DNA of 64,000 nt, from contig JBAYLA010000001.1 in assembly GCA_041664285.1 (NCBI GenBank), positions 68,889 through 132,888 of the forward strand, written 5' to 3'. The position numbers were made by a program, and so were the translations under genes. Source of the stretch: Minisyncoccota bacterium. Lineage in GTDB: Bacteria > Patescibacteriota > Minisyncoccia > Phycocordibacterales > UBA9973. This document shows, one piece after another, positions 4,754 through 61,613 of this stretch (the first letter of the stretch is position 1; every line of letters begins with the position of its first letter). The notes under the pieces are model-generated. The model saw nothing but the letters and a program-made list of their open reading frames with translations, was not told the origin of the DNA and did not search any database.

Positions 4754-4771
4754 AATTGGTTATAATAGGGT

Positions 4772-5020
4772 ATGGACGAATTTAAGAAACAACAATTAAA
4801 TTTAAAAAATACAGAAGAAATACAAACAGAGCTTAATCTTAGGCCTGACGATGAAGTAAAGGAATATTTAAGAAAAGAACTTAGAAAAGCAAGAGATAAC
4901 GGCATAAGCCACAATGATTTTGTTGATGGTCTTAATCCCCAATACAGTAAATTTTTAGCTGAAATTGACGCAGAAGACAGAGAAGGTGATCAGCCTTATC
5001 CTCCTAAAAGAAAAAATTAA
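4772..5020 (+). CDS. hypothetical protein
   Basis: 82-aa charged ORF with good coding look. No recognizable motif. Confidence 0.3.
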   Translation: MDEFKKQQLNLKNTEEIQTELNLRPDDEVKEYLRKELRKARDNGISHNDFVDGLNPQYSKFLAEIDAEDREGDQPYPPKRKN

Positions 5021-5023
5021 AAT

Positions 5024-11620: not shown

Positions 11621-11631
11621 AATAAATTTTA

Positions 11632-12521
11632 TGGTAGATTCAATCATTAATACAAAGAAAATAAATGAAGCAGACGTTATATTGTTGTCTGCAGCTTATG
11701 ATAAAACTGCTTCTAGTCATAAGGGTACAGTCAATGGTCCGAAAGCTATAATAAAAATGCTTGATTCAAAACTTGAGCTTTTTGATCGTACTTATAAGTT
11801 GGAGCCTTGCAAAAAGATAAAAATTGGACAAAAAGATTTAGGCAATTTGAATTCACTTTCACCAGAGAAAACCTTTTTTAAAATTACAAATGAATGTGAA
11901 AAATTTTTAAATAATAATAAATTTGTTTTTTTGTTTGGTGGCGAACATTCAGTTTCGCTTGGACTTTTAAAGGCTCTGGTAAAAAAAGTAAACCCAAAAG
12001 ATGTGACTATTCTTCAAATAGATGCGCACTGTGATTTACGGAATGACGATTCTGATTACAATAATAAACCAACAAAATTTGCACATTCTTGTGTTATGCG
12101 TCGTGCCCACGAACTTGGCTACAATCTTATTCAAGTTGGTATTCGTACCTATTATAAAGATGAGTATAAATATTTTATTAATCCAAAAAATAATATAAAA
12201 GTTTTTGAATGGGGCAATGGTAAGAAAATTCCAATTATTAAGAAAATTTTAAAATCAATTAAAACAAAATATGTTTATATTACAATAGACGTAGATGGCT
12301 TTGATCCTGCTTGTATGCCTGGCACTGGTACACCAGTAGCGGGTGGGCTTGATTGGTGGTATGGCGTAGAGCTTATTAAGCAAGTTGTAAACAAAAAAGA
12401 ATTAATCGGAGCAGATATTGTAGAAGTTTCTCCTATGCGTGATTCAGTACTTACAGAATATAGTGCAGCTCAATTAACTTATACAATAATAGCGCATAAG
12501 TTTCAAAAAAAATTAAGATAA
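11632..12521 (+). CDS. speB: agmatinase (arginase/ureohydrolase family)
   Basis: GGEHSVSLG, IDAHCDLRND and ITIDVDGFDPACMPGTGTP are the Mn-binding motifs. Start moved to the ATG after the upstream stop; the ORF-table start at 11538 overlaps by 83 nt. Confidence 0.7.
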
Positions 12522-13529
12522 ATATTTCTCTATCAATTTATTTGCTTCGGCAGGACTTTTTTTGCATTCCAAAAGGGCAGTTAGTATAAGAGGGGCGACG
12601 ATTGTTGCGTCAGATTCAATAACAAACATCGGAGTGTCTTTGGTAAGTTTATCCCAAGTAATTTTTTCATTTGGGGTGGCGCCTGAGTATGAGCCGTATG
12701 AAGTTGTAGAATCTGAAATCTGGCAAAAATATGCCCATGGCTTGGCAGGAATTTCCATATCATATTTTAATGAGGGTACCACACAAATAGGGAAGTCTCC
12801 AGCGATACCTCCACCAATTTGGAAAAATCCTATACCAGTTCCCTCTGAAAGTTTTTGATATTGATCATAAAATACCCCCATGTATTCTATGCCACTTTTA
12901 GCGATGTTTGCACTTGCATCACCATTTTTTACATGAGAAGCAAAAATATTACCAAAAGTAGAGTCTTCATAACCAGGGACTACTATAGGTATGTTATTTT
13001 CAGCAGCAGCAAGGAGCCAGCATTCTTCTGCTTTGCCTTCGTGTTTTTCTTTATCTATAGCTTGAATTAAATCATAAAAATATTCATGCCAAAATTTACG
13101 GGTATTTTCTTTTGTAGCTTTTTTCCAAACAGGTACAATGAGACTTTCTACAGCACGAAATGCTTCATCTTCTGGAATGCTCGTATCTGTTACTCTGCGC
13201 ATTCTATTTTCTAAAATTTTCGTGTCGTCTTCTTTGGTAAAATATCGATAATCCGGAAAATCTTTATAACTACCATGAGCGACTAGACGAAAAAGCGATT
13301 CTTCAAGATTTGCTCCAGTCACTGACATTCCATGGATTAAACCATTTCTGATTGCTGGTGCTAGGGTAATGCCAAGCTGGGCAGAGCTCATTGCTCCAGC
13401 TACCGCCCAAAACATTTTGCCACCTTTTTCTACATGTCTCCAATACGCTATAAAAGCATCTCGAGTGGCACGAGCGTTAAAGTTTTTGTAATTTTTTAGA
13501 ATGAATTCTAGTGTTGGAAAGTTGTTCAT
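12513..13529 (-). CDS. deoxyhypusine synthase family protein (DHS-like / homospermidine synthase-like)
   Basis: AGAMSSAQLGITLAPAIRNGLIHGMSVTGANLEESL aligns with the DHS core GYTSNLISSGIRE...VTTAGGVEEDL. Confidence 0.65.
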   Translation of the reverse strand: MNNFPTLEFILKNYKNFNARATRDAFIAYWRHVEKGGKMFWAVAGAMSSAQLGITLAPAIRNGLIHGMSVTGANLEESLFRLVAHGSYKDFPDYRYFTKEDDTKILENRMRRVTDTSIPEDEAFRAVESLIVPVWKKATKENTRKFWHEYFYDLIQAIDKEKHEGKAEECWLLAAAENNIPIVVPGYEDSTFGNIFASHVKNGDASANIAKSGIEYMGVFYDQYQKLSEGTGIGFFQIGGGIAGDFPICVVPSLKYDMEIPAKPWAYFCQISDSTTSYGSYSGATPNEKITWDKLTKDTPMFVIESDATIVAPLILTALLECKKSPAEANKLIEKYLS

Positions 13530-26317: not shown

Positions 26318-28252
26318 ATGAAAAAAATATCAAGTTTAATCAATAAAGCAATGGCTGGATTTATGATCTTGGCTTTTGCGTTCGGCTCTACTGGAGTCGG
26401 CATAGTAAATATAGCGCACGCAATAACAACACCCAATTGGAATACTACGGGAGCTTATGTAATAAATATGGAATATCTAGGAATACAATATCCTCATGAT
26501 CTTAATTTAGTTCAAGATGGCCTTGGCAACTTAACCGGCAACGGTGCAAGTCCCGCTGGAGCAAATATCTATACCTATGACATTACTTCTGGTTTAGTTG
26601 ATGGTGATTCTATAACTTTTACCGCAAACTATACCGCGACCCCAGATGCAGTAATTCCCCAAACGGTATTAAATGTTACTGGCATAATAGCAAATGATGG
26701 CACAATCTCTGGAACTTGGTCTGACAATTATGCAGGAGGTGAAAGATCTGGTGCTATTTCAACTGTAAGCGGTGTAGCAATTTTATTAAACAATGAAGTA
26801 ACTCCTACGATAGCTATTGACCTAGGAACAGCAGCTAATTTTGCCATCTTGGCAGAATCAGCAATTACGGATGCTAATCCTGCTATTTCCAGTATCACTG
26901 GAAATGTTGGAATCAACCCAGCAGCTGGTTCATTTATTACCGGTTTATCTTGTACAGAAGTAGCAGGAACAATCTATGATGACGCTACCTATACAGGTGG
27001 TTATGATTCAAATGTATCCTGCCGAATTACCGACACAACACTACTTGGTATAGCTGTAGGTGACAAGCAAGCAGCTTATACTGCTGCGACAACAGGAACA
27101 CCTGCCGGGGTTGGAGCTACTAACTTAAACGTAGGGGCTGGAACTCTTACTGGGAACAATTTTGTTCCCGGAACTTACACTTGGAATACCCCAGGTGATG
27201 TAAATATCACTGGAGATATAACCCTTACAGGTACAGCGACAGATGTTTGGGTATTCCAAGTAGCTGGAAACTTAGATGTTAGTTCTGCAGTAACTATTCA
27301 TTTAGCTGGCGGAGCATTGCCCGCTAATATTTTTTGGGCAGTGGCAGGAACAACAACCCTAAAATCAACTTCTAGCTTTGAAGGAAATATTCTAGGTGCA
27401 TCGACCATTGCATTGCAAGATGGGGCAAAATTAAACGGGAGAGCGTTATCAAAAACTGATGTCACATTAATTGGTAATTCTATTTCTATTCCAACATCAT
27501 CTCCAATAACAACAAAAGTTGTTACGGGCATAACATCTTCTGACGCAACACTAAACGGTACAAATGGTATCAATGATGCATCTGGACATTCATTCTGGGT
27601 CTCATTAAACACATTTGACACTTCAAGTCCAACAATTCCAGTTGGCGTTTATTCAACTCCTGATTTTGGAGCGATATCTGCCAATACTGATTTTTCGGCA
27701 ACTCTTTCATCAATTGCAGGTCTTCCAGCAATAACTCCAAACACAAAATACTATTTTACAGCTTGGTCTAATGTAGATGGCACATGGTATCCTGGTCAAG
27801 TGTTGAGTTTCACTACTGCTACAACGGGAGGAGAAATTGGTGGAATTGTTGAAGGCGAAGGTGTGCTTGCTGTATCTTCTGTGGAGGTAGTAGACAGCAC
27901 AGCGATAGCAGACGGAACTTTTGGTAATGGTTGGAAATATGTTTTCAATGTTACTATTCCCACAAATGAAACTCATCTAGCTATGAAGTTTGCAAATTGG
28001 ACACAAACTGGAGGAAGTGGATCTATCGCAGTGGCGAACAATATGAGAATCTCTTCTCTTCAAGCAAACAATGGCAATGCGACGATCTTAATAACTGCCG
28101 CTAACACTTACACTACCCCTACATTAAACATGATCAGTGATCTTGATCCTGGATTAGCTGGAATACAAGTACAGGTTACGGTCGAAACAGCTGTTCCTAT
28201 AGGTTCTCTAAATGGGTCTTATACTACCAATTACGGGATATTAACTAATTAA
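26318..28252 (+). CDS. large secreted protein with DUF3494 (ice-binding-protein-like) beta-solenoid domain
   Basis: Signal peptide, then AANFAILAESAITDANPAISSITGNVGINPAAGSFITG, the characteristic DUF3494 opening. Thr/Gly/Ser-rich throughout. Confidence 0.55.
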   Translation: MKKISSLINKAMAGFMILAFAFGSTGVGIVNIAHAITTPNWNTTGAYVINMEYLGIQYPHDLNLVQDGLGNLTGNGASPAGANIYTYDITSGLVDGDSITFTANYTATPDAVIPQTVLNVTGIIANDGTISGTWSDNYAGGERSGAISTVSGVAILLNNEVTPTIAIDLGTAANFAILAESAITDANPAISSITGNVGINPAAGSFITGLSCTEVAGTIYDDATYTGGYDSNVSCRITDTTLLGIAVGDKQAAYTAATTGTPAGVGATNLNVGAGTLTGNNFVPGTYTWNTPGDVNITGDITLTGTATDVWVFQVAGNLDVSSAVTIHLAGGALPANIFWAVAGTTTLKSTSSFEGNILGASTIALQDGAKLNGRALSKTDVTLIGNSISIPTSSPITTKVVTGITSSDATLNGTNGINDASGHSFWVSLNTFDTSSPTIPVGVYSTPDFGAISANTDFSATLSSIAGLPAITPNTKYYFTAWSNVDGTWYPGQVLSFTTATTGGEIGGIVEGEGVLAVSSVEVVDSTAIADGTFGNGWKYVFNVTIPTNETHLAMKFANWTQTGGSGSIAVANNMRISSLQANNGNATILITAANTYTTPTLNMISDLDPGLAGIQVQVTVETAVPIGSLNGSYTTNYGILTN

Positions 28253-36214: not shown

Positions 36215-36889
36215 ATGGAAAACATAAAAAACTATAGTATTTGGATTATTGGTGGAGTATTATTAATTTTTTCTTTGCTTTGTTTTTTTGCTGCAAGAGA
36301 TTTCTCTAAACAACAATCTTATGTAGAAGTAAAAGGTTTGTCTGAAAAAATAGTGAAAGCGGATGTCGCTATTTGGTCAATTAATTTTGAAGTTAAATCA
36401 AACAATGTTGATTCCCTTTATGCTGACATAGAAAAAAATGTTACAACTATTAAATCTTTCTTGAAAGAAAAAGGTTTTGAAGATAGTGAAATAAATATTG
36501 CTCCAGTTAATACTTATCAAGACACATACAAAGATGCACTGTTCAGATATAATTCTAATACTCAATTATCTGTTTATACTAAAAAAGTAGATTTAGTTAA
36601 ATCTGCCTCAAAGGCTACTTTAATTTTAGTGAAGAGTGGAATTGTTATGAATCAGAATTCTGTGTCTTTTGAATTTTCAGATATTAATAGTGTTAAACCA
36701 GAAATGTTAGCGGAAGCAATAAAAAATGCGAAAGATACAGCTGCCCAATTTGCTAAAGAATCTGGGTCCAGTTTAGGGAGTGTGTCTCGAGGGAATCAGG
36801 GTGTGTTTGACATTACTGACAAAGACCCTGGCTCTCCAGAATTTAAAAAAATTCGAGTAGTTTCCACCCTTAGATTTTTGTTAAAATAA
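36215..36889 (+). CDS. SIMPL (DUF541) domain secreted protein
   Basis: N-terminal TM; VEVKGLSEKIVKADVAIWSINFEVK fits the SIMPL pattern. Confidence 0.45.
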   Translation: MENIKNYSIWIIGGVLLIFSLLCFFAARDFSKQQSYVEVKGLSEKIVKADVAIWSINFEVKSNNVDSLYADIEKNVTTIKSFLKEKGFEDSEINIAPVNTYQDTYKDALFRYNSNTQLSVYTKKVDLVKSASKATLILVKSGIVMNQNSVSFEFSDINSVKPEMLAEAIKNAKDTAAQFAKESGSSLGSVSRGNQGVFDITDKDPGSPEFKKIRVVSTLRFLLK

Positions 36890-36905: not shown

Positions 36906-37436
36906 TTGATGTCCAAGAAGTCTTTATCCCAAAAACCCCTCGGCCGTAGACCTATGGGCGAGGCAAAAAAGAAAAATAAAAAAATCGTAATGGTTAGCGG
37001 GGGATTTGATCCAGTGCATGTTGGTCATGTAAGGTTGTACAACGAAGCAAGGAAGCTTGGTGATGAGCTTGTGCTTTATCTTAATAATGACAATTGGTTG
37101 CGTGCTAAAAAAGGATTTGTTTTTATGCCTGAACAAGAAAGAAAAGAAATTCTTGAGTCGCTTGAAGCAGTTGATAGAGTTATCATAAGTGATCATCCGA
37201 AAAATACGAAAGACATGAGTGTTTGTAATGGTTTGATGAAAATAAAACCGCATATTTTTGCGAATGGAGGGGACAGAGATGAAAAAGATGCAAATGATCC
37301 AAATTCTTCTTTGTACAAAGAAAGAGAAATACATAAAAAACTTGGCATCAAGATGGTATACAACGTAGGACATGGCGGGAAAGTTCAAAGCTCGTCAGAT
37401 TTAGTAAAAAAAGCAAAATTAAAAAAGAAAAAATAA
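36906..37436 (+). CDS. cytidylyltransferase-family nucleotidyltransferase (RfaE domain II / TagD-like sugar-phosphate adenylyl/cytidylyltransferase)
   Basis: MVSGGFDPVHVGHVRL is the HxGH motif, and ISDHP is present. Confidence 0.6.
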   Translation: MMSKKSLSQKPLGRRPMGEAKKKNKKIVMVSGGFDPVHVGHVRLYNEARKLGDELVLYLNNDNWLRAKKGFVFMPEQERKEILESLEAVDRVIISDHPKNTKDMSVCNGLMKIKPHIFANGGDRDEKDANDPNSSLYKEREIHKKLGIKMVYNVGHGGKVQSSSDLVKKAKLKKKK

Positions 37437-37437
37437 A

Positions 37438-39045
37438 ATGTTGCCAAATCCTAAACTTTCACCTCTTCGTTTTGGTACTAGCGGTGTTCGCGCTCTAGTT
37501 ACCGATATGACTGACATGGAGTGTTATATTAATACTCGTGGTTTTATTCGGTATCTCTATACAATAAAAGAAATTAAACCTGGCGACAGTATTGTTTTGG
37601 GTGGAGATTTAAGGTCTAGCACTCCACGTATTATATCTGCTGTTCATAAAGCTATATTAGACGAAGAATGCCAGACTATTTACTGTGGCTTTGTGCCGAC
37701 TCCAACCTTAAGTTATTATGCTTGGAAAAGACACCTACCCGCAATAATGATTACTGGTAGTCATATTCCTGAAGATCGAAATGGGATAAAATTTATAAAA
37801 TCTAAAGAAGAAGTATTGAAAAATGACGAAAAAGACATACTTTTTCAAGTTGCTATAGTTCGCAAAGAAGAGAATTTAAGAAATGAAAATGAATCCTTGT
37901 TTGATATTGATGGATTTTTTAAACAATCAATTAATTTACCATCCGAATCAGAAGAACAAAATGTTTTATCAGAATTTAAAAAACGTTACACCGATATTTT
38001 CCCCCCTAATACATTAACCGGTAAAAAGATTGTTCTCTATGAACAATCTGCCGTTGGGCGGGATGTTTTCAAAAGTATTCTAACTTCTCTTGGTGCCGAA
38101 GTCATTTCTTTTGGAAGAAGTGATAAATTTATTCCCATAGATACGGAAGAAATGTCGAATGCCGTAATTAGTTCATTAAAACAATTAGCTCAAGAATTTA
38201 AACCATTCGCTATTGTTTCTACTGATGGTGATTCTGATCGTCCTATTCTTACTGACGAAAATGGCTCTTTTCTTTCAGGAGAACGTCTCTGTGCCCTTGT
38301 GTCTCTCTATCTTAAGCCTGATTTTGCTTCAATGACGGCTACTTGTGGCGATGATAAAACCTTAATTACTCTTTTAAAAAAATCAAACATTGAAGTTGTT
38401 TTGACAAAGATTGGTTCTCCTTATGTTATTTTTGCAATGAATGAAAAACTAGCAAAAAATTCAAATACCAAAGTTGTATCTTGGGAAAGAAACGGAGGTT
38501 ATCTTACGGGAAGTAATTTTACTATAAATAATAAAATACTAGATGCGCTTCCTACTCGTGATTCAATTTTACCTCTTTTAATTGCTTTAGTTTTCGCCAA
38601 AGAAGAAGGTGTTCCTCTTTCCGTCTTAATTAACAAAAAACTTTCTAATCGTTTTTCTAGTTCTAGCTCTGTCAATAATAAAACTAAAGGCTGTGAACCT
38701 TACACAGTTGAGCTTGGTAAAAAAATTATTAGTTCTTTTTCACTAAAGGATCCTAATATAGAAGAATTTGATTTTAGTTTTAAAAATATAAACCAGGAAG
38801 CAAAGAATATTAAATCAAAATTAGAACCATACTTTAATCCTACTTTCTATGGTTCAATTATCTCGCTGGGCTACCTTGATGGTGTTCGTATTTCTTTTTC
38901 AAATGGTGATGTTGTGCATTTTCGCCCCTCTAGTAATGCTCCAGAATTTAGATTTTACATTACCTCTGATACCAAAGAACGGGCAGATAAAATTCTTGCT
39001 GACTGTTTTGTTATTATTCCCAAAATGATTGCTGATATTAACTAG
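37438..39045 (+). CDS. alpha-D-phosphohexomutase (phosphoglucomutase/phosphomannomutase family)
   Basis: ITGSHIPEDRNGIKF is the active-site Ser loop (TASHNP-type), plus VSTDGDSDRP (the Mg-binding DGDGDR loop). Confidence 0.75.
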   Translation: MLPNPKLSPLRFGTSGVRALVTDMTDMECYINTRGFIRYLYTIKEIKPGDSIVLGGDLRSSTPRIISAVHKAILDEECQTIYCGFVPTPTLSYYAWKRHLPAIMITGSHIPEDRNGIKFIKSKEEVLKNDEKDILFQVAIVRKEENLRNENESLFDIDGFFKQSINLPSESEEQNVLSEFKKRYTDIFPPNTLTGKKIVLYEQSAVGRDVFKSILTSLGAEVISFGRSDKFIPIDTEEMSNAVISSLKQLAQEFKPFAIVSTDGDSDRPILTDENGSFLSGERLCALVSLYLKPDFASMTATCGDDKTLITLLKKSNIEVVLTKIGSPYVIFAMNEKLAKNSNTKVVSWERNGGYLTGSNFTINNKILDALPTRDSILPLLIALVFAKEEGVPLSVLINKKLSNRFSSSSSVNNKTKGCEPYTVELGKKIISSFSLKDPNIEEFDFSFKNINQEAKNIKSKLEPYFNPTFYGSIISLGYLDGVRISFSNGDVVHFRPSSNAPEFRFYITSDTKERADKILADCFVIIPKMIADIN

Positions 39046-39080
39046 CTAAAAAATACTTTAGTTGTATAATATAGATAAAT

Positions 39081-40295
39081 ATGGTCGCGCTTAAATTTGC
39101 CCGCCGTGGCGGGAAGAAAAAAGTAATAAAGAAAGTTAAAGCTGTTAAAAAAACAGTAGTAAAAAAAATAGTTAAAAAAGCTACAAAGAAAGTAGTAAAA
39201 AAAGTTGCGAAGAAAAAAGTTGTAAAAAAAATCCCATACCCGATTAAAAAATTTAAGGGTAATCCAATTGCTGGTCCAGTTCCTAATTCATTTTGGCAAT
39301 CAGAAGCGGTATTTAATCCAGGGGCGGTAGTGCACGATGGACGTATACATCTTTTTTATAGAGCGCTTGGAGGTGATGGTCTGTCGCGTATTGGTTATAC
39401 TTCAAGCAAAGATGGTATTCATTTTGATGAAAGACTTTCTTATCCAGTTTTTGTGGCAGAAAATATAAACGAAGCACAAGACCATTATCCATATACTTCT
39501 CCAGCTCGTCTTGTTTATAATCCTGTACTTTACGCTTCTGGTGGTGGGTGGGGTGGATGCGAAGATCCACGAGCAGTAAAAATTGATGGCCGAATATATC
39601 TTACCTTCAATATGTTTAATGGGTGGGAATCTATGCGAGTAGCTTTTACTTCAATTGACGGGAAAGATCTATTGGAAAAAAAATGGAACTGGAGTCAATT
39701 TGCTTATTTGTCTCGTCCTGGTGATAGGCAAAAAAATTGGGTTTTATTTCCAGAAAAATTTAATGGTAAGTTTGCGCTTTTTCATAATCTGGATCTGGGA
39801 GATTCTTCTCGAGTGCACATTAAGTATTTGGATGAGCTTAATATGTACAAAACACCAACAAGACAAACAGGAGCACCAGACGTACAGATTTTACCAGATC
39901 ACGTAGTTGCTTGGCATAATCGTACTCGTAGTGCCTCAGCGCCACCAATAAAAACTAAAGATGGCTGGCTTTTATTTTATCATGCGATGGATAAGGATGA
40001 CCCAAATCGTTACAAGGTTGGAGCACTTTTACTTGATCTTAAAGATCCAACAAAAATTCTTTATCGAGCTTCTCGTCCGATTTTAGAACCAGATGAGTGG
40101 TATGAAAATGATTATAAACCAGGAGTGGTGTATGCTAGTGGTGCGGTCGTGAAAGACGGAACATTGTTTCTTTATTATGGCGGGGGAGACAAACATATCG
40201 CTGTAGCATATGTTAATTTAAAAGAATTTCTTAATAAATTAAAGAGTGGTGGAAATGCGGTTTTTTCAAAGAAAAAGGCTGCTTTGAAAATATAA
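39081..40295 (+). CDS. GH130 family glycoside phosphorylase / DUF377 (beta-1,4-mannoside phosphorylase-like) with Lys/Val-rich N-terminal tail
   Basis: FNPGAVVHDGRIHLFYRALG, GCEDPR, APPIKTKDGWLLFYHA and YYGGGD. The first 55 aa are a KKVxKKV repeat. Confidence 0.7.
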   Translation: MVALKFARRGGKKKVIKKVKAVKKTVVKKIVKKATKKVVKKVAKKKVVKKIPYPIKKFKGNPIAGPVPNSFWQSEAVFNPGAVVHDGRIHLFYRALGGDGLSRIGYTSSKDGIHFDERLSYPVFVAENINEAQDHYPYTSPARLVYNPVLYASGGGWGGCEDPRAVKIDGRIYLTFNMFNGWESMRVAFTSIDGKDLLEKKWNWSQFAYLSRPGDRQKNWVLFPEKFNGKFALFHNLDLGDSSRVHIKYLDELNMYKTPTRQTGAPDVQILPDHVVAWHNRTRSASAPPIKTKDGWLLFYHAMDKDDPNRYKVGALLLDLKDPTKILYRASRPILEPDEWYENDYKPGVVYASGAVVKDGTLFLYYGGGDKHIAVAYVNLKEFLNKLKSGGNAVFSKKKAALKI

Positions 40296-40299
40296 TTTT

Positions 40300-41262
40300 A
40301 TGTACGTAGTAAAAAGATCTCATCGCAATCCAATTTTTGTTCCATATAAAGACCATTACTGGGAGGATTTTGCCACTTTTAATATGAGTGTCATTAAAAA
40401 AGGTAAAATGTTATATGGCGCATATCGTGCTATTGGCGCATCCGATATATTACGTACACCACAGCAGATTTCCGTTATAGGTTTGGCGAAGAAAGGTGAA
40501 GGTCATAACTATTTTAAAAATGCTGTGCCTTTTATCGTCCCAGAAGAAGAATGGGAAAAATACGGATGTGAAGATCCTAGGATTACTTTTTTTGAAGGTA
40601 ATTATTATATATTTTATACTGCACTTTCAAAATATCCATTTGAAGCTAGTGGAATTAAGGTTGCCGTAGCAATTTCAAAAGATTTTAAAAATATTAATGA
40701 ACGTCATTTAATAACACCTTTCAATGCTAAGGCAATGACACTTTTTCCTGAGCGTATTAATGGAAAAATTACAGTAATCGTGACTGTAAATACAGATATG
40801 CCTCCGTCGAAAATTGCCGTAGCACAAGTTGATAAGATAGAATAGTTATGGAATCAAAAATTTTGGGAAAAATGGTATGCAAAAATAGACGAGCACGCTG
40901 TCGATTTTAAAAGATTTCCATCTGACCATGCTGAAATTGGTGCTCAACCTCTTAAAACTCGCTATGGTTGGCTTCTTCTTTACTCCCATATCCAAAATTA
41001 TTTCTCTGGAGGGAATAATTCTAATCGTATATTTGGGATTGAAGCAGTTCTACTTGATTTAAATAATCCACTTAAAATTATCGGTCGGACGAGCGGTCCT
41101 ATTTTAGTACCTCGAGAGTCATATGAACTTTTAGGCCATGTTCCTAATATAGTTTTTCCTTCAGGCGCAATTTTAGAAAAAGATACACTTTTTATATATT
41201 ATGGAGCAGCAGATACTACGACCTGTTTGGCTCATGTAAATTTAACTGATCTTATAGGAACG
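40300..41262 (+). pseudogene. GH130 paralog 2, interrupted by an in-frame TAG at 40843-40845 and lacking its own stop
   Basis: The N-half is HRNPIFVP...GCEDPRITFFEGNYYIFYTA. After the TAG the same frame continues with WYAKIDEH...PLKTRYGWLLLYSH...IFIYYGAADTT, the C-half of the same domain. It then runs directly into the third GH130 copy. Confidence 0.55.
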
Positions 41263-42255
41263 ATGAGACCAGAAACAAGTGCCCGATGGCATTTTAATCG
41301 TTCTTTAAAGAATCCAATTATTTTACCAGACAAAACTCATCCGTGGGAAGCTAAAGCTACTTTTAATCCAGCAGCCTTGAGGATAGGAGAAACAATCCAT
41401 ATATTATATCGAGCACTTTCGGAAGATAATACATCTACTCTTGGCTATGCATCAACTAAAGATGGTTTTACTATTGACGAAAGAAGTTCTTCGCCTATTT
41501 ATGTTCCAAGAGAAGATTTTGAGTTAAAAAAAATTGCCAATGGAAATTCGGGTTGTGAAGATCCGCGATTAACGAAAATAGGGAGTACCATTTATATGTG
41601 CTACACGGCCTTTGATGGTATTGGTCCGCCACGAGTTGCTGTTACTTCTATCACAGAGAAAAATTTCTTATCAAAAAATTGGCAGTGGGAAAAACCGGTG
41701 ATCATAACGCCAGCTGGCTTTGATGATAAAGATACTTGTATTTTTTCCGAAAAAACCAATGGAAAATATTTTATTTTGCACAGAGTAGGTAATGAAATTT
41801 GTGGAGATTACATAAAAACACTTAATTTTAAAACCGAAACCATCCGAAAGTGTATTAGAATTATAGGACCTAGAATAAATAAATGGGATAATGCAAAAGT
41901 TGGGATTTCTGCGCCACCCATAAAAACAAAATATGGATGGTTGCTTCTTTATCATGGTATTTCAAAAAGTAGTAATACTTATCGTCTCGGAGCTGTCTTG
42001 CTTGATCTTAATGATCCATCTACTGTTCTTTCCCGTACTTCTGATCCCATATTTGAACCAGAAGAATCATATGAAAAAATTGGAATAATTAATAATGTTG
42101 TTTTTCCGTGCGGAATGGTTGTTAAACCTGCCAGCCGTGGTGGGGACGATTTGCTTTATATATATTATGGTGGAGCGGATACTGTTGTTGGAGTTGCGAC
42201 CATAGAACTTGATATTCTACTTCGAGCTCTTACTCGAGATATTAAGAAAACATAA
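41263..42255 (+). CDS. GH130 family glycoside phosphorylase, paralog 3 (start set at ATG 41263)
   Basis: FNPAALRIGETIHILYRALS, GCEDPR, APPIKTKYGWLLLYHG and YYGGADT. The ORF-table start at 41227 is a TTG inside the preceding domain's C-terminus. Confidence 0.65.
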   Translation: MRPETSARWHFNRSLKNPIILPDKTHPWEAKATFNPAALRIGETIHILYRALSEDNTSTLGYASTKDGFTIDERSSSPIYVPREDFELKKIANGNSGCEDPRLTKIGSTIYMCYTAFDGIGPPRVAVTSITEKNFLSKNWQWEKPVIITPAGFDDKDTCIFSEKTNGKYFILHRVGNEICGDYIKTLNFKTETIRKCIRIIGPRINKWDNAKVGISAPPIKTKYGWLLLYHGISKSSNTYRLGAVLLDLNDPSTVLSRTSDPIFEPEESYEKIGIINNVVFPCGMVVKPASRGGDDLLYIYYGGADTVVGVATIELDILLRALTRDIKKT

Positions 42256-56472: not shown

Positions 56473-57924
56473 ATGTCTAAAAAATTAATTTTAGTTCTGG
56501 GATTAGTTTTTTTCTTTTTAGGGGCTAATTTGGCAAAAGCGGATGTAATTATAAATGAAATTCAAATAAATCCCACCGAAGGAAGATTTATAGAACTTTA
56601 TAATGGAAATAGCTCAGAAGTTGATTTAACTGATTGGTATATTCAAAGAAAAACCGCGACTGGAAGTGATTTTGGGTCTTTAGTTTCCAAAACATATTTT
56701 GAGAATAAGACGATTGAGGCTGGTGGTTATTTTTTAATTTCCAAAAATACAATAGAAAATGCTGATATTGTTCTAGGTAGTTTAACTCTTACAGAATCAA
56801 ATACAATTCAATTAAAAAATGGAAACCAAGAAGTAGTAGATAAAGTTGGTTGGGGAAGCGGGGAATCTTCTGTGGGTGATAATCCTGCTGAAGGACAAAG
56901 TATCCAAAAAACTGAAAGTGGTTCCTGGATATCTTCGATTCCGACACCCGGAACAGCAAATGAAACAAATGCAATTCCTTCACCAACATCTTCCACTGAC
57001 GCTAACAGTGTCAGTTCTCTTACTAGTAGCACTAGTTCTTCTAGTAGTATTTCTTCATCTAGTACAAATACTACAGAAATAAAAACAAAAGCAATTGAAA
57101 ATCCTACTATGAAAGTAAAAATTTTAACGGGCACTCTAGCTTTTACGGGGCAACCTTTTGAAATACAAACTAGTGTTACAGGTTTTTTAAATGAAAAAGT
57201 TGTTCTAGGTAAAGCTTATTGGAATTTTGGTGACGGTAGTTCCTTTGAACAAATAAATAATTTTGAAAAGTTTTCCCATATTTATTATTATCCAGGTGAA
57301 TATATTCTCTTTTTAGAATATTATCGAAATAATTTTTCAAAAGTTCCAGAAGCGACAACCAAAACAACAATTAAAGTTTTACCCACGACTGTTTCTATTT
57401 CTAAGGTTGGAGATGCAAAAGATTTTTTTATTGAACTTTCGAATAATGCTAGTTCAGATATGGATATTTCTAATTGGGTTATTAAAGCAAGCGGAAAAGT
57501 TTTTATTTTACCTAAAAATAGTATCATTATGTCTAAAAAACAAATGACTATTTCTAGTAAAATAACAGGTTTTTCCTATGGTGATCAATTTAACTTGAAG
57601 CTTTATTCAGGAACAGATGAATTGATTTTTGATTATTCATCTTCTCTTGTTTTAGCAAAAACACATAGAATGGCTTCATCGACTCTTTCTTCGATTCCTC
57701 CCATTGATGAGGGAGAGACGCCAAAGGTAGAAAGGCTATTTTCTGATGTTACGCAAGCTTCAGCTATTTCTAGCGGAGTAATGGATAGTAATATAAATAA
57801 TTCATATTTACCTATATTGGGATCAATTATTTTTATTGGAGCTTCGGCTTCCGCCGTTTATTTTATTCGTCGAAAAAAAATTTCAAGAGAAGAAGCGAAT
57901 GACTTTGAAATTTTAGACGAATAA
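56473..57924 (+). CDS. surface protein with lamin-tail domains (LTD) and C-terminal TM anchor
   Basis: Signal peptide. VIINEIQINPTEGRFIELYNGNSSEVDLTDWYI is the LTD pattern, with a second LTD-like segment at FFIELSNNASSDMDISNWVI. A Ser/Thr linker is followed by a C-terminal TM and RRKK tail. Confidence 0.55.
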   Translation: MSKKLILVLGLVFFFLGANLAKADVIINEIQINPTEGRFIELYNGNSSEVDLTDWYIQRKTATGSDFGSLVSKTYFENKTIEAGGYFLISKNTIENADIVLGSLTLTESNTIQLKNGNQEVVDKVGWGSGESSVGDNPAEGQSIQKTESGSWISSIPTPGTANETNAIPSPTSSTDANSVSSLTSSTSSSSSISSSSTNTTEIKTKAIENPTMKVKILTGTLAFTGQPFEIQTSVTGFLNEKVVLGKAYWNFGDGSSFEQINNFEKFSHIYYYPGEYILFLEYYRNNFSKVPEATTKTTIKVLPTTVSISKVGDAKDFFIELSNNASSDMDISNWVIKASGKVFILPKNSIIMSKKQMTISSKITGFSYGDQFNLKLYSGTDELIFDYSSSLVLAKTHRMASSTLSSIPPIDEGETPKVERLFSDVTQASAISSGVMDSNINNSYLPILGSIIFIGASASAVYFIRRKKISREEANDFEILDE

Positions 57925-57987: not shown

Positions 57988-59772
57988 TTGTCTTGTTTTT
58001 ATATGGAAAAAGATTATTCAAACTTGCACCTTAAATTGGTGCTTAAATATTTTTGGCAAGTGATTAGACGCTTTAAGTGGTCATTTTTCACAGTACTTAT
58101 TGCTACTACGCTCTTTTCTGTCCTAGATGTTTATATCCCATTTCAATTCTTAAAACTCTGGAATGTCTTAAGTACTAATAATTTTTCTTTTATCTCAACG
58201 GCTAGATCGATAATTATTTTAATATTTATTTTAGGATTCTTCCGTTTTATTCTTGCTAGAATTTCCGGATTTTCTCTTGCATATTTTGAAGCAGAAACTA
58301 TGGCTGGTCTCAGAGAGCAAGCTTTCTCTTATATGATTGGCCATCCTTATTCTTTTTTTGCAAATAATTTTGTAGGGTCATTAACTCAAAAGATAAACAA
58401 ATATGCTCGTGCCTTCGAAAGGCTAACTGACCGAATGGTTGCCGATGGTTTACCGCTTGTTGTTCGCAGTGCCAGTATGTTTATTGCTGTTTATTCCTTG
58501 TTTCCCAAATATGCCTATATTTTAGGAATTTTCTGTTTAGTTTTTTTATTGACTGCACTTATTTATATTAAATTTAAAATTAAATATGATGTGATTGCTG
58601 CTTTAGCTGATACTAGAACTACCGGAGTTTTAGCGGATGCCATCGGCAACCATTCTTCCATTCAAATTTTTACTGGTCATAAGTATGAAGAAGATCGTAC
58701 TGGAGAAATAATTCAAAAACAAAGAAAGGCGACTGTCTTCAATTGGTTTTTGTGGGAGGGTCTTAACGCTATCCAAAGCTTTTATTCGTTAGCTATCGGG
58801 CCTCTAGTTTTATGGATTGCTTTGAATGATTGGGAACTTGGTATTGTTACTGTACCTTTCATGGTGCTTTTGCAAAGTTACCTAGTTCGCTTGATTGATA
58901 ATTTATGGAGTTTTGGGGGCATAGTTCGCACTTTTTATGATAGTTTTGCTGATGCTCAAGAAATGGCCATTATTCTCAACACACAGTATGAGATTATTGA
59001 TAAAACAGAAAAAGTTGCTAAAAGTATAAAAGGGGAAGTTGCTTTTAATAATGTAACCTATGTTTATAAAAACAATAATAATAAAATATTAAACGATTTT
59101 TCTCTAACCATACCACCCGGACAAAAAATCGCTATTGTCGGTTCATCTGGTTCCGGAAAAACTACCATCGTTCGTCTTTTGATGAGATTTTTTGATATTA
59201 CTTCTGGGGAAATTACAATTGATAGAATCAATATCAGTAAAATTTCTCAAAAAAATCTTCGAGAACAAATTGCTTTTGTTCCACAAGACCCAGTGCTCTT
59301 TCACCGTACGCTAATGGAAAATATACGTTATGGTAGGAGAGACGCTACCGATGAAGAAGTTTTAAAAGCTGCTACTCTTGCGCACTGTGATGAATTTATT
59401 GATTCTTTGCCATTTGGTTATGAAACGTATGTAGGAGAACGTGGAGTAAAGCTCTCTGGTGGCGAGCGCCAGAGGGTGGCTATTGCTCGTGCCATTATTA
59501 AAAATGCTCCAATTCTGATTTTAGATGAAGCAACTTCTTCGCTTGATTCTCATTCTGAAGCTTTGATTCAAGATGCCTTAACAAAACTGATTGCTGGTAA
59601 AACAACTATTGTCATTGCTCATCGACTTTCTACTATTAGACAAATGGATAGAATTATTGTGCTCGATAAAGGAAAAATAGTTGAAGATGGAGTTCATGAC
59701 GAATTGGCCAATAAAAAAGATGGATTTTATAAAAAATTATGGGATCTTCAAGCAGGAGGATTTTTAGATTAA
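57988..59772 (+). CDS. ABC exporter, fused permease/ATPase (MsbA-like)
   Basis: Six TM helices, Walker A GSSGSGKTT, signature LSGGERQRVAIARA, and Walker B ILILDEATS. Confidence 0.85.
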   Translation: MSCFYMEKDYSNLHLKLVLKYFWQVIRRFKWSFFTVLIATTLFSVLDVYIPFQFLKLWNVLSTNNFSFISTARSIIILIFILGFFRFILARISGFSLAYFEAETMAGLREQAFSYMIGHPYSFFANNFVGSLTQKINKYARAFERLTDRMVADGLPLVVRSASMFIAVYSLFPKYAYILGIFCLVFLLTALIYIKFKIKYDVIAALADTRTTGVLADAIGNHSSIQIFTGHKYEEDRTGEIIQKQRKATVFNWFLWEGLNAIQSFYSLAIGPLVLWIALNDWELGIVTVPFMVLLQSYLVRLIDNLWSFGGIVRTFYDSFADAQEMAIILNTQYEIIDKTEKVAKSIKGEVAFNNVTYVYKNNNNKILNDFSLTIPPGQKIAIVGSSGSGKTTIVRLLMRFFDITSGEITIDRINISKISQKNLREQIAFVPQDPVLFHRTLMENIRYGRRDATDEEVLKAATLAHCDEFIDSLPFGYETYVGERGVKLSGGERQRVAIARAIIKNAPILILDEATSSLDSHSEALIQDALTKLIAGKTTIVIAHRLSTIRQMDRIIVLDKGKIVEDGVHDELANKKDGFYKKLWDLQAGGFLD

Positions 59773-59786
59773 AAATAAAAAACTTT

Positions 59787-61613
59787 ATGGATTTAAAACA
59801 CATTAGAAATTTTTCAATCATTGCTCATATAGACCATGGTAAAAGTACTTTGGCGGATAGAATGCTTGAGATTACCCACACAATAGAAACTCGTAAAATG
59901 CGAGATCAAGTATTGGATTCTATGGACCTTGAACGTGAAAGAGGAATTACCATTAAAATGCAACCTGTAAGAATGGAATACGAATTTAATGGAGAAAAAT
60001 ATATTTTAAATCTTATCGATACTCCGGGGCATATAGACTTTTCTTATGAGGTTTCTCGAGCTTTAAAGGCTGTAGAAGGCTCTATTTTGCTTGTAGACTC
60101 AACTCAGGGGGTACAAGCACAGACGCTTACAACACTCGCTATGGCACGCAGTAGTGGTCTTAAAATCATTCCTGTGCTATCTAAGATCGATTCTCCTTTG
60201 GCTAGGGTGGAAGAAATAAAAGAAGAAGTTGTAAATCTTTTGAATTGTGATCCAGATGAAATTTTACTAGTTTCTGGGCGAACAGGTGAAGGAGTATCTA
60301 AACTTTTACAGGAAGTTATAAAACAAGTACCAGAACCAAAAGAAACATGCTCACAAAAGGAAAATGAAATGGGTCAAGGCACTAGTAGCTTACGTGCATT
60401 AGTATTTGATTTTAAATATTCAAATCATCGAGGAGTAATAGTTTTTGTGCGGGTGTTTGATGGGAAAGTTAGGAAGGGCGATAATTTAGTTTTTGCAGTT
60501 TCTGGCGAGAAATTCATTGCTCTTGAAGTGGGAACTTTTTCTCCAGAAGAAACTTCTCGCGACTTCCTTTCCTCTGGAGAGACAGGGTATATCGTGACTG
60601 GTATCAAGAAACCTGGTATTGCCTCGGTCGGAGATACTATCACCATGTTCAAAAATCCATTACCAGCTTTTCCAGGTTATATGCAACCGATGCCAGTAGT
60701 CTGGGCTTCTGTTTTTCCAGAAGATGCAGATGATTTTGCGGAATTAAAACTTGCTTTAGGAAAATTAAAACTTTCCGACTCAGCTTTTTCTTATGAAGAA
60801 GAATCAAGTGGATCTTTAGGTCGGGGATTTAGGTGTGGGTTTTTAGGAATGCTTCATTTAGAAATTATTACCGAGAGGTTGAAGCGCGAATTTAATTTGG
60901 AATTGGTTATTACCACACCTTCCATCACTTATGAGGTTTTATTAAAAAATGGGAAAAAAGAAAAAGTTTACTCTCCATTTCATTTCCCTGATGATGGTCT
61001 AATAGAGAATGTTTTTGAGCCTTGGGTAAACTTGAAGATTATTACTCCTGTTCAATATGTAGGGAACGTTATGCAACTTCTTTTTGATCACGAGGGAGAG
61101 GTGGGTGATACAGAGAATTTTGGAGATAGTCGTTCTACTATTTCTGTGAAAATGCCCCTTCGAGAGCTGATGCGAAATTTTTTCGATGAATTGAAAAGTG
61201 TTTCTTCTGGTTATGCTTCTATCTCTTATGAAATAGGGGAATTACGGGAGGCCAATGTTACCAGACTTGATTTGCTAGTAGCGGATGAAGTGGTGCCGGC
61301 TTTTTCTCGGGTGGTGGCTAAAAAAAGAGCCGAAGTTGAAGCAGAGAATGCAGTTTTAAAATTGGACGAATTATTACCGAGACAAATGTTCACTTTAAAA
61401 ATCCAAGGTCGTGCACTTGGACGTATTATTTCTTCTCGCACGAAATCCGGTATGAAAAAGGATGTGACTCAGCATATGTACGGAGGTGACATCACCCGTA
61501 AAATGAAACTTCGAGAAAAGCAGAAAAAAGGAAAGAAAAAGATGAAGGAAAGAGGTAGAGTAAATATTCCTCAAGATGTATTTTTGAAAATGATGCGTGC
61601 TGGAGATAAATAG
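59787..61613 (+). CDS. lepA: elongation factor 4
   Basis: IRNFSIIAHIDHGKSTLADR, DTPGHIDF and the LepA-specific C-terminal domain. Confidence 0.9.
   Translation: MDLKHIRNFSIIAHIDHGKSTLADRMLEITHTIETRKMRDQVLDSMDLERERGITIKMQPVRMEYEFNGEKYILNLIDTPGHIDFSYEVSRALKAVEGSILLVDSTQGVQAQTLTTLAMARSSGLKIIPVLSKIDSPLARVEEIKEEVVNLLNCDPDEILLVSGRTGEGVSKLLQEVIKQVPEPKETCSQKENEMGQGTSSLRALVFDFKYSNHRGVIVFVRVFDGKVRKGDNLVFAVSGEKFIALEVGTFSPEETSRDFLSSGETGYIVTGIKKPGIASVGDTITMFKNPLPAFPGYMQPMPVVWASVFPEDADDFAELKLALGKLKLSDSAFSYEEESSGSLGRGFRCGFLGMLHLEIITERLKREFNLELVITTPSITYEVLLKNGKKEKVYSPFHFPDDGLIENVFEPWVNLKIITPVQYVGNVMQLLFDHEGEVGDTENFGDSRSTISVKMPLRELMRNFFDELKSVSSGYASISYEIGELREANVTRLDLLVADEVVPAFSRVVAKKRAEVEAENAVLKLDELLPRQMFTLKIQGRALGRIISSRTKSGMKKDVTQHMYGGDITRKMKLREKQKKGKKKMKERGRVNIPQDVFLKMMRAGDK

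Follow-up and report, generated by a model that had tools for sequence, protein, structure and literature searches.

A conserved four-gene cluster of a Paceibacteria-class Patescibacterium, probably a beta-1,2-mannoside/mannose-phosphate module, with Lys-tailed and tandem GH130 proteins

The 64-kb stretch of DNA analysed here (the window) carries a four-gene cluster that we read, as the probable explanation, as a conserved cytoplasmic beta-1,2-mannoside/mannose-phosphate module of a Patescibacterium of the Paceibacteria class. It comprises a nucleotidyltransferase (NT), a probable phosphomannomutase, a single-module GH130 protein (G1) and a GH130–GH130 fusion (modules A and B). A preliminary description had listed five same-strand genes separated by 2–40 nt, including three tandem GH130 phosphorylase genes. 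All five ORFs and their families were confirmed, with Pfam reporting CTP_transf_like (4e-12), PGM_PMM domains I–III and Glyco_hydro_130 on the last three ORFs. However, there are four genes rather than five: the GH130 part consists of two genes with three modules, one gene bearing a nonsense codon in the assembly. Likewise, the short spacers hold for the first four ORFs (1, 35 and 4 nt), but 381 nt follow the second GH130 ORF. The features are as follows.

36215..36889, + strand: SIMPL/DUF541-family membrane protein (PF04402 in public annotation), conserved upstream neighbour
36906..37436, + strand: NT (ORF 1, 176 aa), small HxGH (HIGH-motif) nucleotidyltransferase of the cytidylyltransferase fold (CTP_transf_like, 4.4e-12)
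37438..39045, + strand: alpha-D-phosphohexomutase (ORF 2, 535 aa), probably phosphomannomutase (PGM_PMM domains I, II and III)
39081..40295, + strand: G1 (ORF 3, 404 aa), single-module GH130 with a polycationic N-terminal tail (GH130, 2.5e-37)
39081..39251, + strand: Lys/Val-rich disordered tail of G1, residues 1–57 (46% K+R, 0% D+E)
40300..42255, + strand: tandem GH130–GH130 protein in one frame, 651 codons interrupted by one TAG
40300..41262, + strand: module A (fusion residues 1–321), GH130 fold
40300..40845, + strand: ORF 4 (181 aa)
40843..40845, + strand: in-frame TAG in place of module A Glu182, a single G-to-T difference from a public contig
41227..42255, + strand: ORF 5 (342 aa)
41263..42255, + strand: module B (fusion residues 322–651), canonical beta-1,2-mannoside phosphorylase signature

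The 181-aa ORF spans only positions 33–176 of the Pfam GH130 profile. The apparent 381-nt spacer behind it (40846–41226), read in the same frame, matches profile positions 217–314 (E = 5e-23) and is the missing C-terminal part of the second GH130. Since no in-frame stop codon lies between this stretch and the third GH130, positions 40300–42255 form one frame of 651 codons with two complete GH130 modules. The public contig ENA ERZ27249449:k141_1450224 is identical across 21,215 bp except for a G instead of the T at window position 40843; its codon is GAG (Glu182), and the gene is called there as a single 651-aa product. The 120 best homologs are, without exception, fusions themselves, 615–665 aa long and at 75–89% identity; they carry Glu (88/120) or Asp (27/120) in the column of residue 182, which sits in a helix (180–184) of the AF2 model (pLDDT 91.4, pTM 0.87). 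Both modules share one frame in all 80 related loci (species genomes), 79 of them free of internal stops; L043 alone has one, at codon 616 of 644. We conclude that the GAG-to-TAG change represents either a null allele at strain level or an error in the consensus, and neither recoding nor a true gene boundary. A functional TAG, i.e., programmed read-through or recoding (e.g., as pyrrolysine or through a suppressor) or an intended split into a short N-terminal protein and a separately initiated module B, is so improbable as to be nearly negligible. The frame beyond the TAG is intact, and module B is preceded by an in-frame ATG (41263) that has AGGA shortly before it; however, this genome uses TAG as a regular stop codon, which closes 15 of the 72 frames of at least 120 codons (six-frame stop-to-stop reading frames, not curated genes), the neighbouring mutase gene included. 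The same reading is opposed by the Glu or Asp at the site in 115 of 120 homologs, by the 0/80 related loci with a stop at that codon, and by public assemblies, none of which records either truncated product. Judged from the AF2 model, the 181-residue fragment would also be too short for a five-bladed propeller.

All three GH130 modules are closest, by sequence and fold, to Teth514_1788/1789 of Thermoanaerobacter sp. X-514, the 1,2-beta-oligomannan and beta-1,2-mannobiose phosphorylases of GH130_6 (PDB 9fj8, 7fip). They share with these enzymes the five-bladed propeller, the catalytic Asp of the EDPR motif and the Glu/Lys pair diagnostic of the beta-1,2 linkage, although no module reaches the NCBIfam equivalog cut-off of 450 bits (best score 236). 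The characterised enzymes of this type consist of one module (about 300 aa), whereas two modules are fused here. Module B aligns with Teth514_1788 at 4e-57 and 39% identity and gives Foldseek TM-scores of 0.87–0.90 to 9fj8/9gph. Measured against the diagnostic GH130 residues of PMC7660257 Table 2 (Li et al. 2020) and PMC12814180, module B, a predicted phosphorylase, is shown to possess all those of an inverting beta-1,2-mannoside phosphorylase: Asp421, Glu420, Lys477, Arg495, His552 and Asp627. By column counts, each of these six residues is invariant in 119 or more of 120 sequences, and module B alone among the three GH130 units keeps the phosphate-binding Arg/His pair of Teth514_1788/1789. 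The module would catalyse beta-1,2-Man(n) + Pi <-> beta-1,2-Man(n-1) + alpha-Man-1-P.

In contrast to Teth514_1788/1789, G1 and module A lack the phosphate-binding Arg, and A lacks the His as well. Module A aligns with Teth514_1788 over its full length (2e-38) and keeps the catalytic Asp92 together with Glu91, Lys144 and Asp305, with Thr or Ser replacing the Arg and Ser replacing the His (column counts). Its invariant Glu212 (column counts) falls at the position of BT3780 Glu268, a mapping made by alignment coordinates only, with which the strand register of the AF2 model agrees. Because Glu212 occupies the position of the mannosidase base candidate, module A is probably hydrolase-like or transglycosylase-like. 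The GH130_3 beta-1,2-mannosidases (BT3780, BACOVA_03624, Dfer_3176) resemble module A in that they lack the Arg/His pair but retain the catalytic Asp, the Glu, the Lys and the C-terminal Asp, and the Lys–Glu–aromatic–Asp spacings are 68/33/60 residues in A vs. 69/34/61 in BT3780. However, A scores 59–68 bits against these hydrolases vs. 135 bits against phosphorylases, and unlike them it has no signal peptide and no identified counterpart of the second hydrolase glutamate, Glu227. The grounds that the preliminary description gave for refuting its own reading, paralogs grouping with non-phosphorolytic GH130 hydrolases that lack the basic phosphate-binding residues, apply in part: the canonical Arg is missing from two of the three modules, one of which also lacks the His and has a hydrolase-type Glu, but by overall similarity they do not group with GH130_3.

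G1 aligns with Teth514_1788 at 2e-46 (AF2 model pTM 0.81). Column counts over 120 orthologs show that its catalytic Asp, its beta-1,2 subsite residues and His301 are retained, with an invariant Asn236 at the phosphate-binding Arg site. Four further invariant basic residues, Arg216, Arg281, Arg283 and Lys312, might rebuild a phosphate site, and G1 probably acts as a transferase or as a modified phosphorylase. G1 and A both retain their catalytic Asp and the residues that bind sugar at -1/+1 but have lost the canonical phosphate clamp; they would most likely act on the same glycan by something other than standard phosphorolysis. A parallel exists in the Leishmania GT108 enzymes MTP1-7 (mannogen synthases/phosphorylases; PDB 6q4x, 6q50), which are a set of beta-1,2-mannosyl paralogs that share this fold and, like the GH130 set here, are encoded side by side. 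In GT108, loss of the active-site Arg abolishes phosphorylase activity (PMC10913872), and in Uhgb_MS the R202A exchange lowers it 16-fold. The likeness lies in Arg loss accompanying phosphorylase loss, for the present modules as read from sequence; the two sets share only 15–18% identity, belong to different CAZy families, and differ in the replacement at the Arg site (Asn or Thr here, His in GT108).

The best PDB match of the mutase is 4hjh, "phosphomannomutase" (2.5e-79), and its translation contains the signature loops TGSHIP, DGDSDR, ERNGG and RPSSNAPE. It is probably a phosphomannomutase, predicted to interconvert Man-1-P and Man-6-P, and an isomerase, encoded elsewhere in the genome if at all, would join the pathway to fructose-6-P; no mannose-6-phosphate isomerase was found within the window, and we know of no beta-1,2-mannoside source for these organisms. 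Among relatives, a mannose-6-phosphate isomerase cupin (PF01050, 2e-21) occurs in 49 of 61 related loci, all 61 of which have a Lys-tailed GH130. In L022, the closest relative, the mutase slot holds a HAD-type phosphomannomutase (PF03332, 35.4 bits vs. a cut-off of 22.4), and across genomes this type and the alpha-phosphohexomutase, two unrelated folds, substitute for each other. The isomerase and HAD-type mutase in relatives' clusters support mannose specificity; with the likeness to Teth514_1788/1789, they make mannose with a beta-1,2 signature the supported candidate sugar. The original idea of a sugar-phosphate cluster in which GH130 frees sugar-1-phosphate for the mutase is supported. Its characterisation as unexpected in so reduced a genome does not hold: the cluster recurs as a conserved feature in hundreds of ultra-small Patescibacteria, 283 candidate stretches with a fusion relative being counted in a one-genome-per-species collection. 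Fusion relatives are 65–89% identical across 80 species genomes, and a natural 971-aa protein joins a G1-like module, A and B in a single chain. The pathway logic is ordinary, whereas the GH130 architecture is uncharacterised and lineage-wide.

For NT, the likely start is the ATG at 36909, the C-terminus is short and Lys-rich, and orthologs are 71–93% identical. Among NCBIfam models, RfaE domain II scores best (74 bits vs. a cut-off of 181.5), and NT is far under the cut-off of every specific family among these models. The best PDB match is the archaeal 3glv, followed by ECT and TagD; these proteins and HldC/RfaE domain II (D-glycero-beta-D-manno-heptose 1-phosphate adenylyltransferase) have NT's HxGH fold and C-terminal SSS/ISTT-like motif. 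HldC-type enzymes of the HldE/RfaE family adenylylate a manno-configured sugar-1-phosphate; NT, unlike them, has neither a kinase partner nor an LPS context. In 54 of the 61 related loci, NT precedes the GH130 genes, and a second NT paralog lies elsewhere in the window. However, the unrelated neighbours HPF, Fmt, Def and HisRS are equally syntenic and all related loci come from one class; therefore synteny alone is no proof that NT belongs to the pathway. The SIMPL protein, upstream of NT in many related loci, is left outside the assigned pathway.

The original reading, in which three independent GH130 phosphorylases salvage imported beta-mannosides or beta-glycans and the mutase and NT pass the product to glycolysis or nucleotide-sugar pools, appears unlikely. 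Its family assignments are right, module B has the complete signature, and phosphorylase, phosphomannomutase and isomerase in series, the classical GH130 catabolic route, suit the cupin and mutase genes of relatives. However, there are two genes rather than three, the Arg is missing from two modules and the His from one of these, and neither ORF translations nor public annotation reveal a transporter, binding protein or signal peptide in the cluster; NT, moreover, would be superfluous for catabolism and is not recognised as a mannose-1-P enzyme.

Doubtful, too, is a storage cycle like that of Leishmania mannogen, which would give a cell of minimal metabolism a reserve and a sugar-phosphate buffer: NT would make nucleotide-mannose from Man-1-P, G1 would prime or elongate an intracellular beta-1,2-mannan, B would phosphorolyse it to Man-1-P, and A would trim or hydrolyse it. 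The pairing of isomerase, mutase and NT with three diverged GH130 modules, the natural triple fusion and a conservation as extreme as expected of a core function fit such a cycle, as does the activity of HldC-type enzymes of NT's fold, although HldC uses the beta-anomer whereas phosphomannomutase and GH130 yield alpha-Man-1-P. Patescibacteria have no reported beta-mannan and no mannogen-like polymer known to us, and our literature search found no paper tying GH130 to this class. Beta-1,2 GH130 phosphorylases have shown GDP-Man transferase activity, which its authors regard as possibly irrelevant in vivo (PMC12814180). The Arg-to-Asn change of G1 parallels strict GT108 transferases, in which His instead of Arg sets them apart from phosphorylase-capable enzymes, but Arg alone does not decide activity (PMC10913872). 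An envelope glycopolymer, with NT as a TagD-like glycerol-phosphate (or similar) cytidylyltransferase and G1 docking its tail on an anionic polymer or the inner membrane leaflet and beta-mannosylating a lipid-linked or teichoic-acid-like acceptor from Man-1-P, is highly unlikely. TagD and ECT do match NT, but RfaE-II outscores TagD (74 vs. 45 bits); a transmembrane helix takes the place of the basic tail in the distant homolog P0379, but this is the sole such case among 150 representatives. The conserved upstream neighbour is a membrane protein (SIMPL), yet public annotation places no polymerase, flippase or ligase gene in the cluster, and soluble housekeeping proteins here also bear basic tails.

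Within the favoured mannose-phosphate module, G1 would probably be held by its disordered polycationic tail on an anionic surface, e.g., membrane, nucleic acid or anionic polymer. The Lys/Val-rich N-terminus reported earlier was found at residues 1–57, with no acidic residues, and sets G1 apart from Teth514_1788/1789. It is no assembly artefact, since a tail of at least 30 aa and at least 30% K+R is present in 117 of 120 orthologs (median 57 aa, median 45% K+R), its composition being conserved and its sequence not. Residues 1–47 have pLDDT < 50 and no secondary structure, i.e., are predicted to be disordered. The comparison with histones survives as compositional resemblance only: the tails of histone H1, AlgP, Hc1 and mycobacterial HupB are likewise low-complexity, strongly basic, disordered and Lys/Ala/Val-rich, whereas this one sits on an enzyme rather than a DNA-binding fold. 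Similar Lys-rich tails occur on unrelated proteins in the same window, namely an arginine-decarboxylase-like protein and LepA, and basic tails recur on distant members of the same GH130 clade.

All long open reading frames (ORFs) across 36906–42255 lie on the forward strand, and the families assigned to them in the preliminary description are borne out by Pfam (CTP_transf_like, PGM_PMM and Glyco_hydro_130):

36906–37436, + strand: NT, a cytidylyltransferase-fold protein of 176 aa, Pfam CTP_transf_like, with the HxGH motif GGFDPVHVGH
37438–39045, + strand: mutase, 535 aa, PGM_PMM domains I–III
39081–40295, + strand: G1, a Lys-tailed single-module GH130 protein of 404 aa, Glyco_hydro_130
40300–40845, + strand: 181-aa ORF, Glyco_hydro_130, profile positions 33–176 only
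41227–42255, + strand: 342-aa ORF, Glyco_hydro_130, full length

The spacers among the first four ORFs are 1, 35 and 4 nt. Three separate GH130 genes had been described here, but the 181-aa ORF accounts for no more than the N-terminal half of a propeller of this family. Past its TAG codon (40843–40845), 381 nt in the same frame encode positions 217–314 of the Pfam GH130 profile (E = 5e-23), and the frame runs on into the third GH130 without any stop. Because these 381 nt complete the fold in frame and no stop precedes the third GH130, 40300–42255 is a single 651-codon frame with two complete GH130 modules, hereafter A (residues 1–321) and B (residues 322–651), cut by one TAG. For annotation, the lesson is that the 181-aa ORF, the apparent spacer and the 342-aa ORF belong to one gene with a nonsense codon.

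The nature of this TAG can be judged from public sequences. An ENA contig of 134.6 kb (ERZ27249449:k141_1450224) matches the window at every base of a 21,215-bp stretch but one, position 40843, where the window has T and the ENA contig has G, so that codon 182 there is GAG (Glu) and the fusion gene is annotated as one 651-aa protein. Among the best 120 of more than 6,000 fusion homologs (all 615–665 aa, with 75–89% identity and 96–100% query coverage), 88 carry Glu at position 182 and 27 carry Asp. Across the 80 related species-level genomes examined (65–89% identity), out of 283 confirmed relatives in a one-genome-per-species collection, A and B share one frame without a stop between them in every case, and 79 fusions are free of any internal stop; the sole exception, locus L043, has its stop at codon 616 of 644 rather than at codon 182. 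Recoding of the stop codon is ruled out, since TAG serves this genome as a regular stop and closes 15 of 72 stop-to-stop reading frames (six-frame, at least 120 codons, uncurated as genes), including the mutase gene, and homologs carry Glu or Asp at the site. Look-ups of public assemblies for the TAG allele found none of the 181-aa, 330-aa or 342-aa products. In NCBI, the mutase and G1 are identical to WCW93_00680 and WCW93_00685 of a Candidatus Paceibacterota MAG, in which the 651-aa protein has no record, as would be expected if the fusion gene was treated as a pseudogene. We take the TAG for either a consensus error or a nonsense allele at the strain level; it marks neither a gene boundary nor a recoded codon.

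All three modules match the GH130 (CAZy) profile, Pfam PF04041, over the whole five-bladed propeller, with E-values of 2.5e-37 for G1, 4.9e-54 for B, and 9e-15 and 5e-23 for the halves of A flanking the TAG; their mutual pairwise identities are 26–37%. The nearest enzymes by sequence are the Thermoanaerobacter β-1,2-mannoside phosphorylases Teth514_1788/1789 (B 4e-57, G1 2e-46, A 2e-38), and A, B and G1 alike give full-length alignments to Teth514_1788. Predicted structures agree with this match (TM-scores up to 0.90, 39% identity), and the fold comparison returned no solved chain spanning both fusion modules. Against the NCBIfam model for β-1,2-mannobiose phosphorylase (NF052550), every module scores under the curated whole-protein cut-off of 450 bits (B 235.9, G1 193, A 92.5 + 78.4 bits).

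The modules were compared at diagnostic residues taken from PMC7660257 (Li et al. 2020, Table 2) and PMC12814180 (Ladeveze et al. 2025), with columns counted over 120 homologs for each module.

Diagnostic active-site residues of the three GH130 modules
Proton-donor Asp (UhgbMP D104 / BT3780 D142; EDPR motif): B D421; G1 D162; A D92
Glu of the β-1,2 pair (adjoins the catalytic Asp): B E420; G1 E161; A E91
Lys of the β-1,2 pair (UhgbMP R150 position): B K477; G1 K218; A K144
C-terminal Asp: B D627; G1 D370; A D305
Phosphate-binding Arg (UhgbMP R168 / Uhgb_MS R202): B R495; G1 Asn236, invariant; A Thr/Ser162
Phosphate-binding His (UhgbMP H231): B H552; G1 His301; A Ser229
Uhgb_MS R242 position: B Lys533 (Lys 106, Arg 14 of 120); G1 Thr282, invariant; A Glu212, invariant

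The EDPR motif with the catalytic Asp is invariant in all three modules, and the catalytic Asp, the Glu/Lys pair and the C-terminal Asp are invariant or nearly so in each, so that A, B and G1 all have the Glu and Lys that mark the β-1,2-specific subfamilies GH130_3, _4 and _6 (PMC7660257, Table 2). The phosphate site separates them. Only B has the phosphate-binding Arg expected of a mannoside phosphorylase, and its R495/H552 pair is kept in 119 of 120 homologs; judged by these residues, B carries the full signature of a predicted inverting β-1,2-mannoside phosphorylase. At the Arg site, where strand positions in AlphaFold2 models confirm the alignment register, G1 has Asn236 in 120 of 120 homologs and A has Thr or Ser162 in 118 of 120. 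At the His site, G1 keeps H301 (120/120), and A has Ser229 followed by His one residue on. Removal of the Arg in Uhgb_MS lowers phosphorylase activity 16-fold (PMC12814180); in the sister family GT108, an Arg-to-His change at this site abolishes phosphorylase activity, and the Arg by itself does not confer it (PMC10913872).

With the canonical phosphate clamp absent from two of the three modules, the earlier claim of three phosphorylases needs revising. The preliminary description had also named what would speak for non-phosphorolytic hydrolases, namely loss of the basic phosphate-binding residues and grouping with known GH130 hydrolases; the first is found in two modules, but by overall similarity none of the three groups with those hydrolases. 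A alone resembles the GH130_3 β-1,2-mannosidases in having no Arg/His phosphate pair. These enzymes are expected to carry a signal peptide or lie outside the cytoplasm, the signal peptide being used as a criterion in PMC7660257, and here A differs: it opens directly with the propeller (MYVVKRSHRNPIF...) and has no hydrophobic leader. The invariant Glu212 of A falls on Glu268 of BT3780 through two independent sets of alignment coordinates (PDB chain 5a7v and NCBIfam NF058598) rather than a displayed residue-level alignment, and the landmark spacings of the two proteins are nearly equal (69/34/61 in BT3780, 68/33/60 in A). BT3780 Glu268 is one of two candidate catalytic bases of GH130 hydrolases. 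It is suggestive that Glu212 may be its counterpart, with no partner found in A for BT3780 Glu227, for which the candidates are D166, D178, E181 and E182.

The genomic setting points to mannose. In a gene-order survey of the 61 related loci whose upstream sequence was long enough, all of one class, the conserved upstream half consists of a SIMPL-family membrane protein, NT (54/61), a mutase slot and a mannose-6-phosphate isomerase (PMI) cupin (49/61; PF01050, 2e-21), followed downstream by a Lys-tailed GH130 (61/61), the A-B fusion, HPF, Fmt, Def and HisRS. A HAD-IIB protein is the usual occupant of the mutase slot. That of L022, the closest relative (neighbouring genes 89–97% identical), lies at 4273–5058 and matches PF03332, the eukaryotic-type phosphomannomutase, above cut-off; in the window and two other loci the slot is filled by an α-D-phosphohexomutase. 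A probable phosphomannomutase, together with a mannose-6-phosphate isomerase in relatives, is encoded alongside B. Two unrelated folds in one slot, plus the isomerase in relatives, are good evidence that the cluster would handle mannose phosphates. The PMI cupin common in relatives is missing from the window's cluster, and neither a mannose-6-phosphate isomerase nor a HAD-type phosphomannomutase was found within the 64-kb window, inside or outside the cluster. Non-orthologous displacement between the HAD-type and α-phosphohexomutase forms in this slot can be followed in L022, L008 (5675–6430 and 6427–6774), L009 and L036.

The window's mutase has the features of an α-D-phosphohexomutase, with Pfam domains I–III, a domain IV aligned to residues 417–475 of 4hjh, and phosphoserine, metal, sugar and phosphate loops reading TGSHIP, DGDSDR, ERNGG and RPSSNAPE. 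Its nearest solved relative is named phosphomannomutase (2.5e-79), and every NCBIfam equivalog scores far under its cut-off. For NT, sequence models establish membership of the general cytidylyltransferase-like superfamily only (TIGR00125, 55 bits, cut-off 27.7); the best specific model, RfaE domain II (TIGR02199, HldC / RfaE domain II adenylyltransferase), gives 74.2 bits against a cut-off of 181.5, and the 120 homologs listed are all close Patescibacteria orthologs. Housekeeping neighbours unrelated to the pathway are equally syntenic across the surveyed loci, all of the same class, so NT is only putatively linked to the pathway, by tight spacing and plausibility. A second cytidylyltransferase-like paralog at 9593–10084 (+) is RfaE-II-like (47 bits) and lies beside arginine-decarboxylase-like, agmatinase/arginase and deoxyhypusine-synthase-like genes (10187–13529). 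The only four differences between the window and the public contig within 8850–30142, at 10004, 10005, 10011 and 10036, fall inside this paralog; with them, the window departs from the ENA contig at more than the TAG, and a reading of it as that contig with one base altered was rejected.

The tandem architecture is widespread, with lengths of at least 560 aa in 103 of the best 150 cluster representatives at 50% identity. A 971-aa protein of another lineage (P0366) joins a G1′-like module, A and B in a single chain, which argues that the three modules may work together. Here G1′ denotes a second Lys-tailed GH130 type, about 43% identical to G1 and with Ser at the phosphate-Arg site, that occupies the genomic slot of G1 in 42 of the 61 related loci; the G1′ of L005 (6835–7992) has Gln at the His site. 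Among other distant homologs, the two-module P0379 (697 aa) starts with a transmembrane helix where others have the basic tail, and in P0369 (1029 aa) the A-B fusion is followed by about 400 further C-terminal residues without any Pfam match.

The Lys-rich tail of G1 (residues 1–57) is 46% Lys + Arg and has no acidic residues. The preliminary description allowed for an assembly artefact, but 117 of 120 G1 orthologs (63–100% identical in the core) are extended in a comparable way at the N-terminus, by 30 residues or more of which Lys + Arg make up at least 30% (median 57 residues, 45%). The tail sequence itself is unconserved, and AlphaFold models residues 1–47 without secondary structure and at a pLDDT below 50, next to a confident propeller (pTM 0.81). 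These ortholog tails and the low pLDDT speak for a genuine tail that is conserved in kind and, as modelled, disordered; the likeness to histone H1 and AlgP tails drawn earlier is a matter of composition only. Two other proteins of the window have Lys-rich ends with at least 52% Lys + Arg over 25 residues: the arginine-decarboxylase-like protein (10187–11620, +) at its N-terminus and LepA (59739–61613, +) at its C-terminus. With G1 this makes 3 of 67 ORFs, so polycationic tails recur among the cytoplasmic proteins of this genome. Basic tails, some of them Arg/Pro-rich, are found on distant relatives within this GH130 clade too. A literature search for Lys-rich tails in this phylum returned nothing useful.

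Two small features accompany the tail-coding DNA. At 39100–39113 (+), in a genome of 32% GC, there is a perfect GC-only hairpin (CCCGCC-GT-GGCGGG) that encodes ARRGG; a repeated element was ruled out, as the hairpin is unique in the window and its DNA is not conserved in relatives. The peptide ARRGGK is sporadic: 9 of 120 G1 tails contain it, and of 56 NT orthologs at least 4 end with it in their C-terminal region. At 39064–39071 (+), some 10 nt ahead of the G1 start codon, lies an extended −10-like element (TGTATAAT), which suggests a putative internal promoter with a very short or absent leader.

From the residues described, B would interconvert β-1,2-mannosides plus phosphate and α-mannose-1-phosphate, which the mutase and isomerase would join to fructose-6-phosphate, whichever way the flux runs. 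The other two modules would work on this glycan without phosphate as the standard nucleophile, A more probably in a hydrolase-like or transglycosylase-like manner and G1 possibly as a transferase or modified phosphorylase placed by its polycationic tail. As no cluster protein has a signal peptide, all of this chemistry would be cytoplasmic. The glycan itself could be imported or an endogenous reserve like the mannogen of Leishmania, and we regard the reserve as unlikely. A fuller proposal, to which we give somewhat less credence still, is that Paceibacteria run an intracellular β-1,2-mannan cycle, a bacterial analogue of Leishmania mannogen, with G1 as a tethered transferase-like enzyme, A as hydrolase-like or transglycosylase-like, B as the phosphorylase, A-B as a permanently fused intramolecular heterodimer, and NT as a novel mannose-1-phosphate nucleotidylyltransferase.

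Patescibacteria account for much of bacterial diversity, and the picture of their carbon metabolism is drawn mostly from sparse annotation. The present cluster, annotated as 'hypothetical' or 'DUF377', is among their most conserved features, and it points to β-1,2-linked mannose, which to our knowledge is rare in bacteria. The pathway logic of GH130 with phosphomannomutase and PMI is already known. The literature searched contained no description of lineage-wide tandem GH130 proteins with an N-terminal module devoid of the phosphate site, of Lys-tailed, Arg-less GH130 types, or of an association of these GH130s with a cytidylyltransferase-fold enzyme, and no paper that connects Paceibacteria or Parcubacteria with GH130; a genome paper on Microgenomates lists two GH130 genes and nothing more. 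Side by side, the modules offer three natural active-site variants (complete phosphate site; Arg lost; Arg and His lost with Glu gained), the kind of contrast by which workers on GH130 and GT108 explore what sets phosphorylases, hydrolases and transferases apart. Elsewhere in the window, no public record was found for the 483-aa product of 56473–57924, and a 644-aa protein at 26318–28252 (+), with an Ice_binding domain (PF11999) according to the public contig annotation, lies in the window's most GC-rich stretch (0.389 vs. about 0.32).
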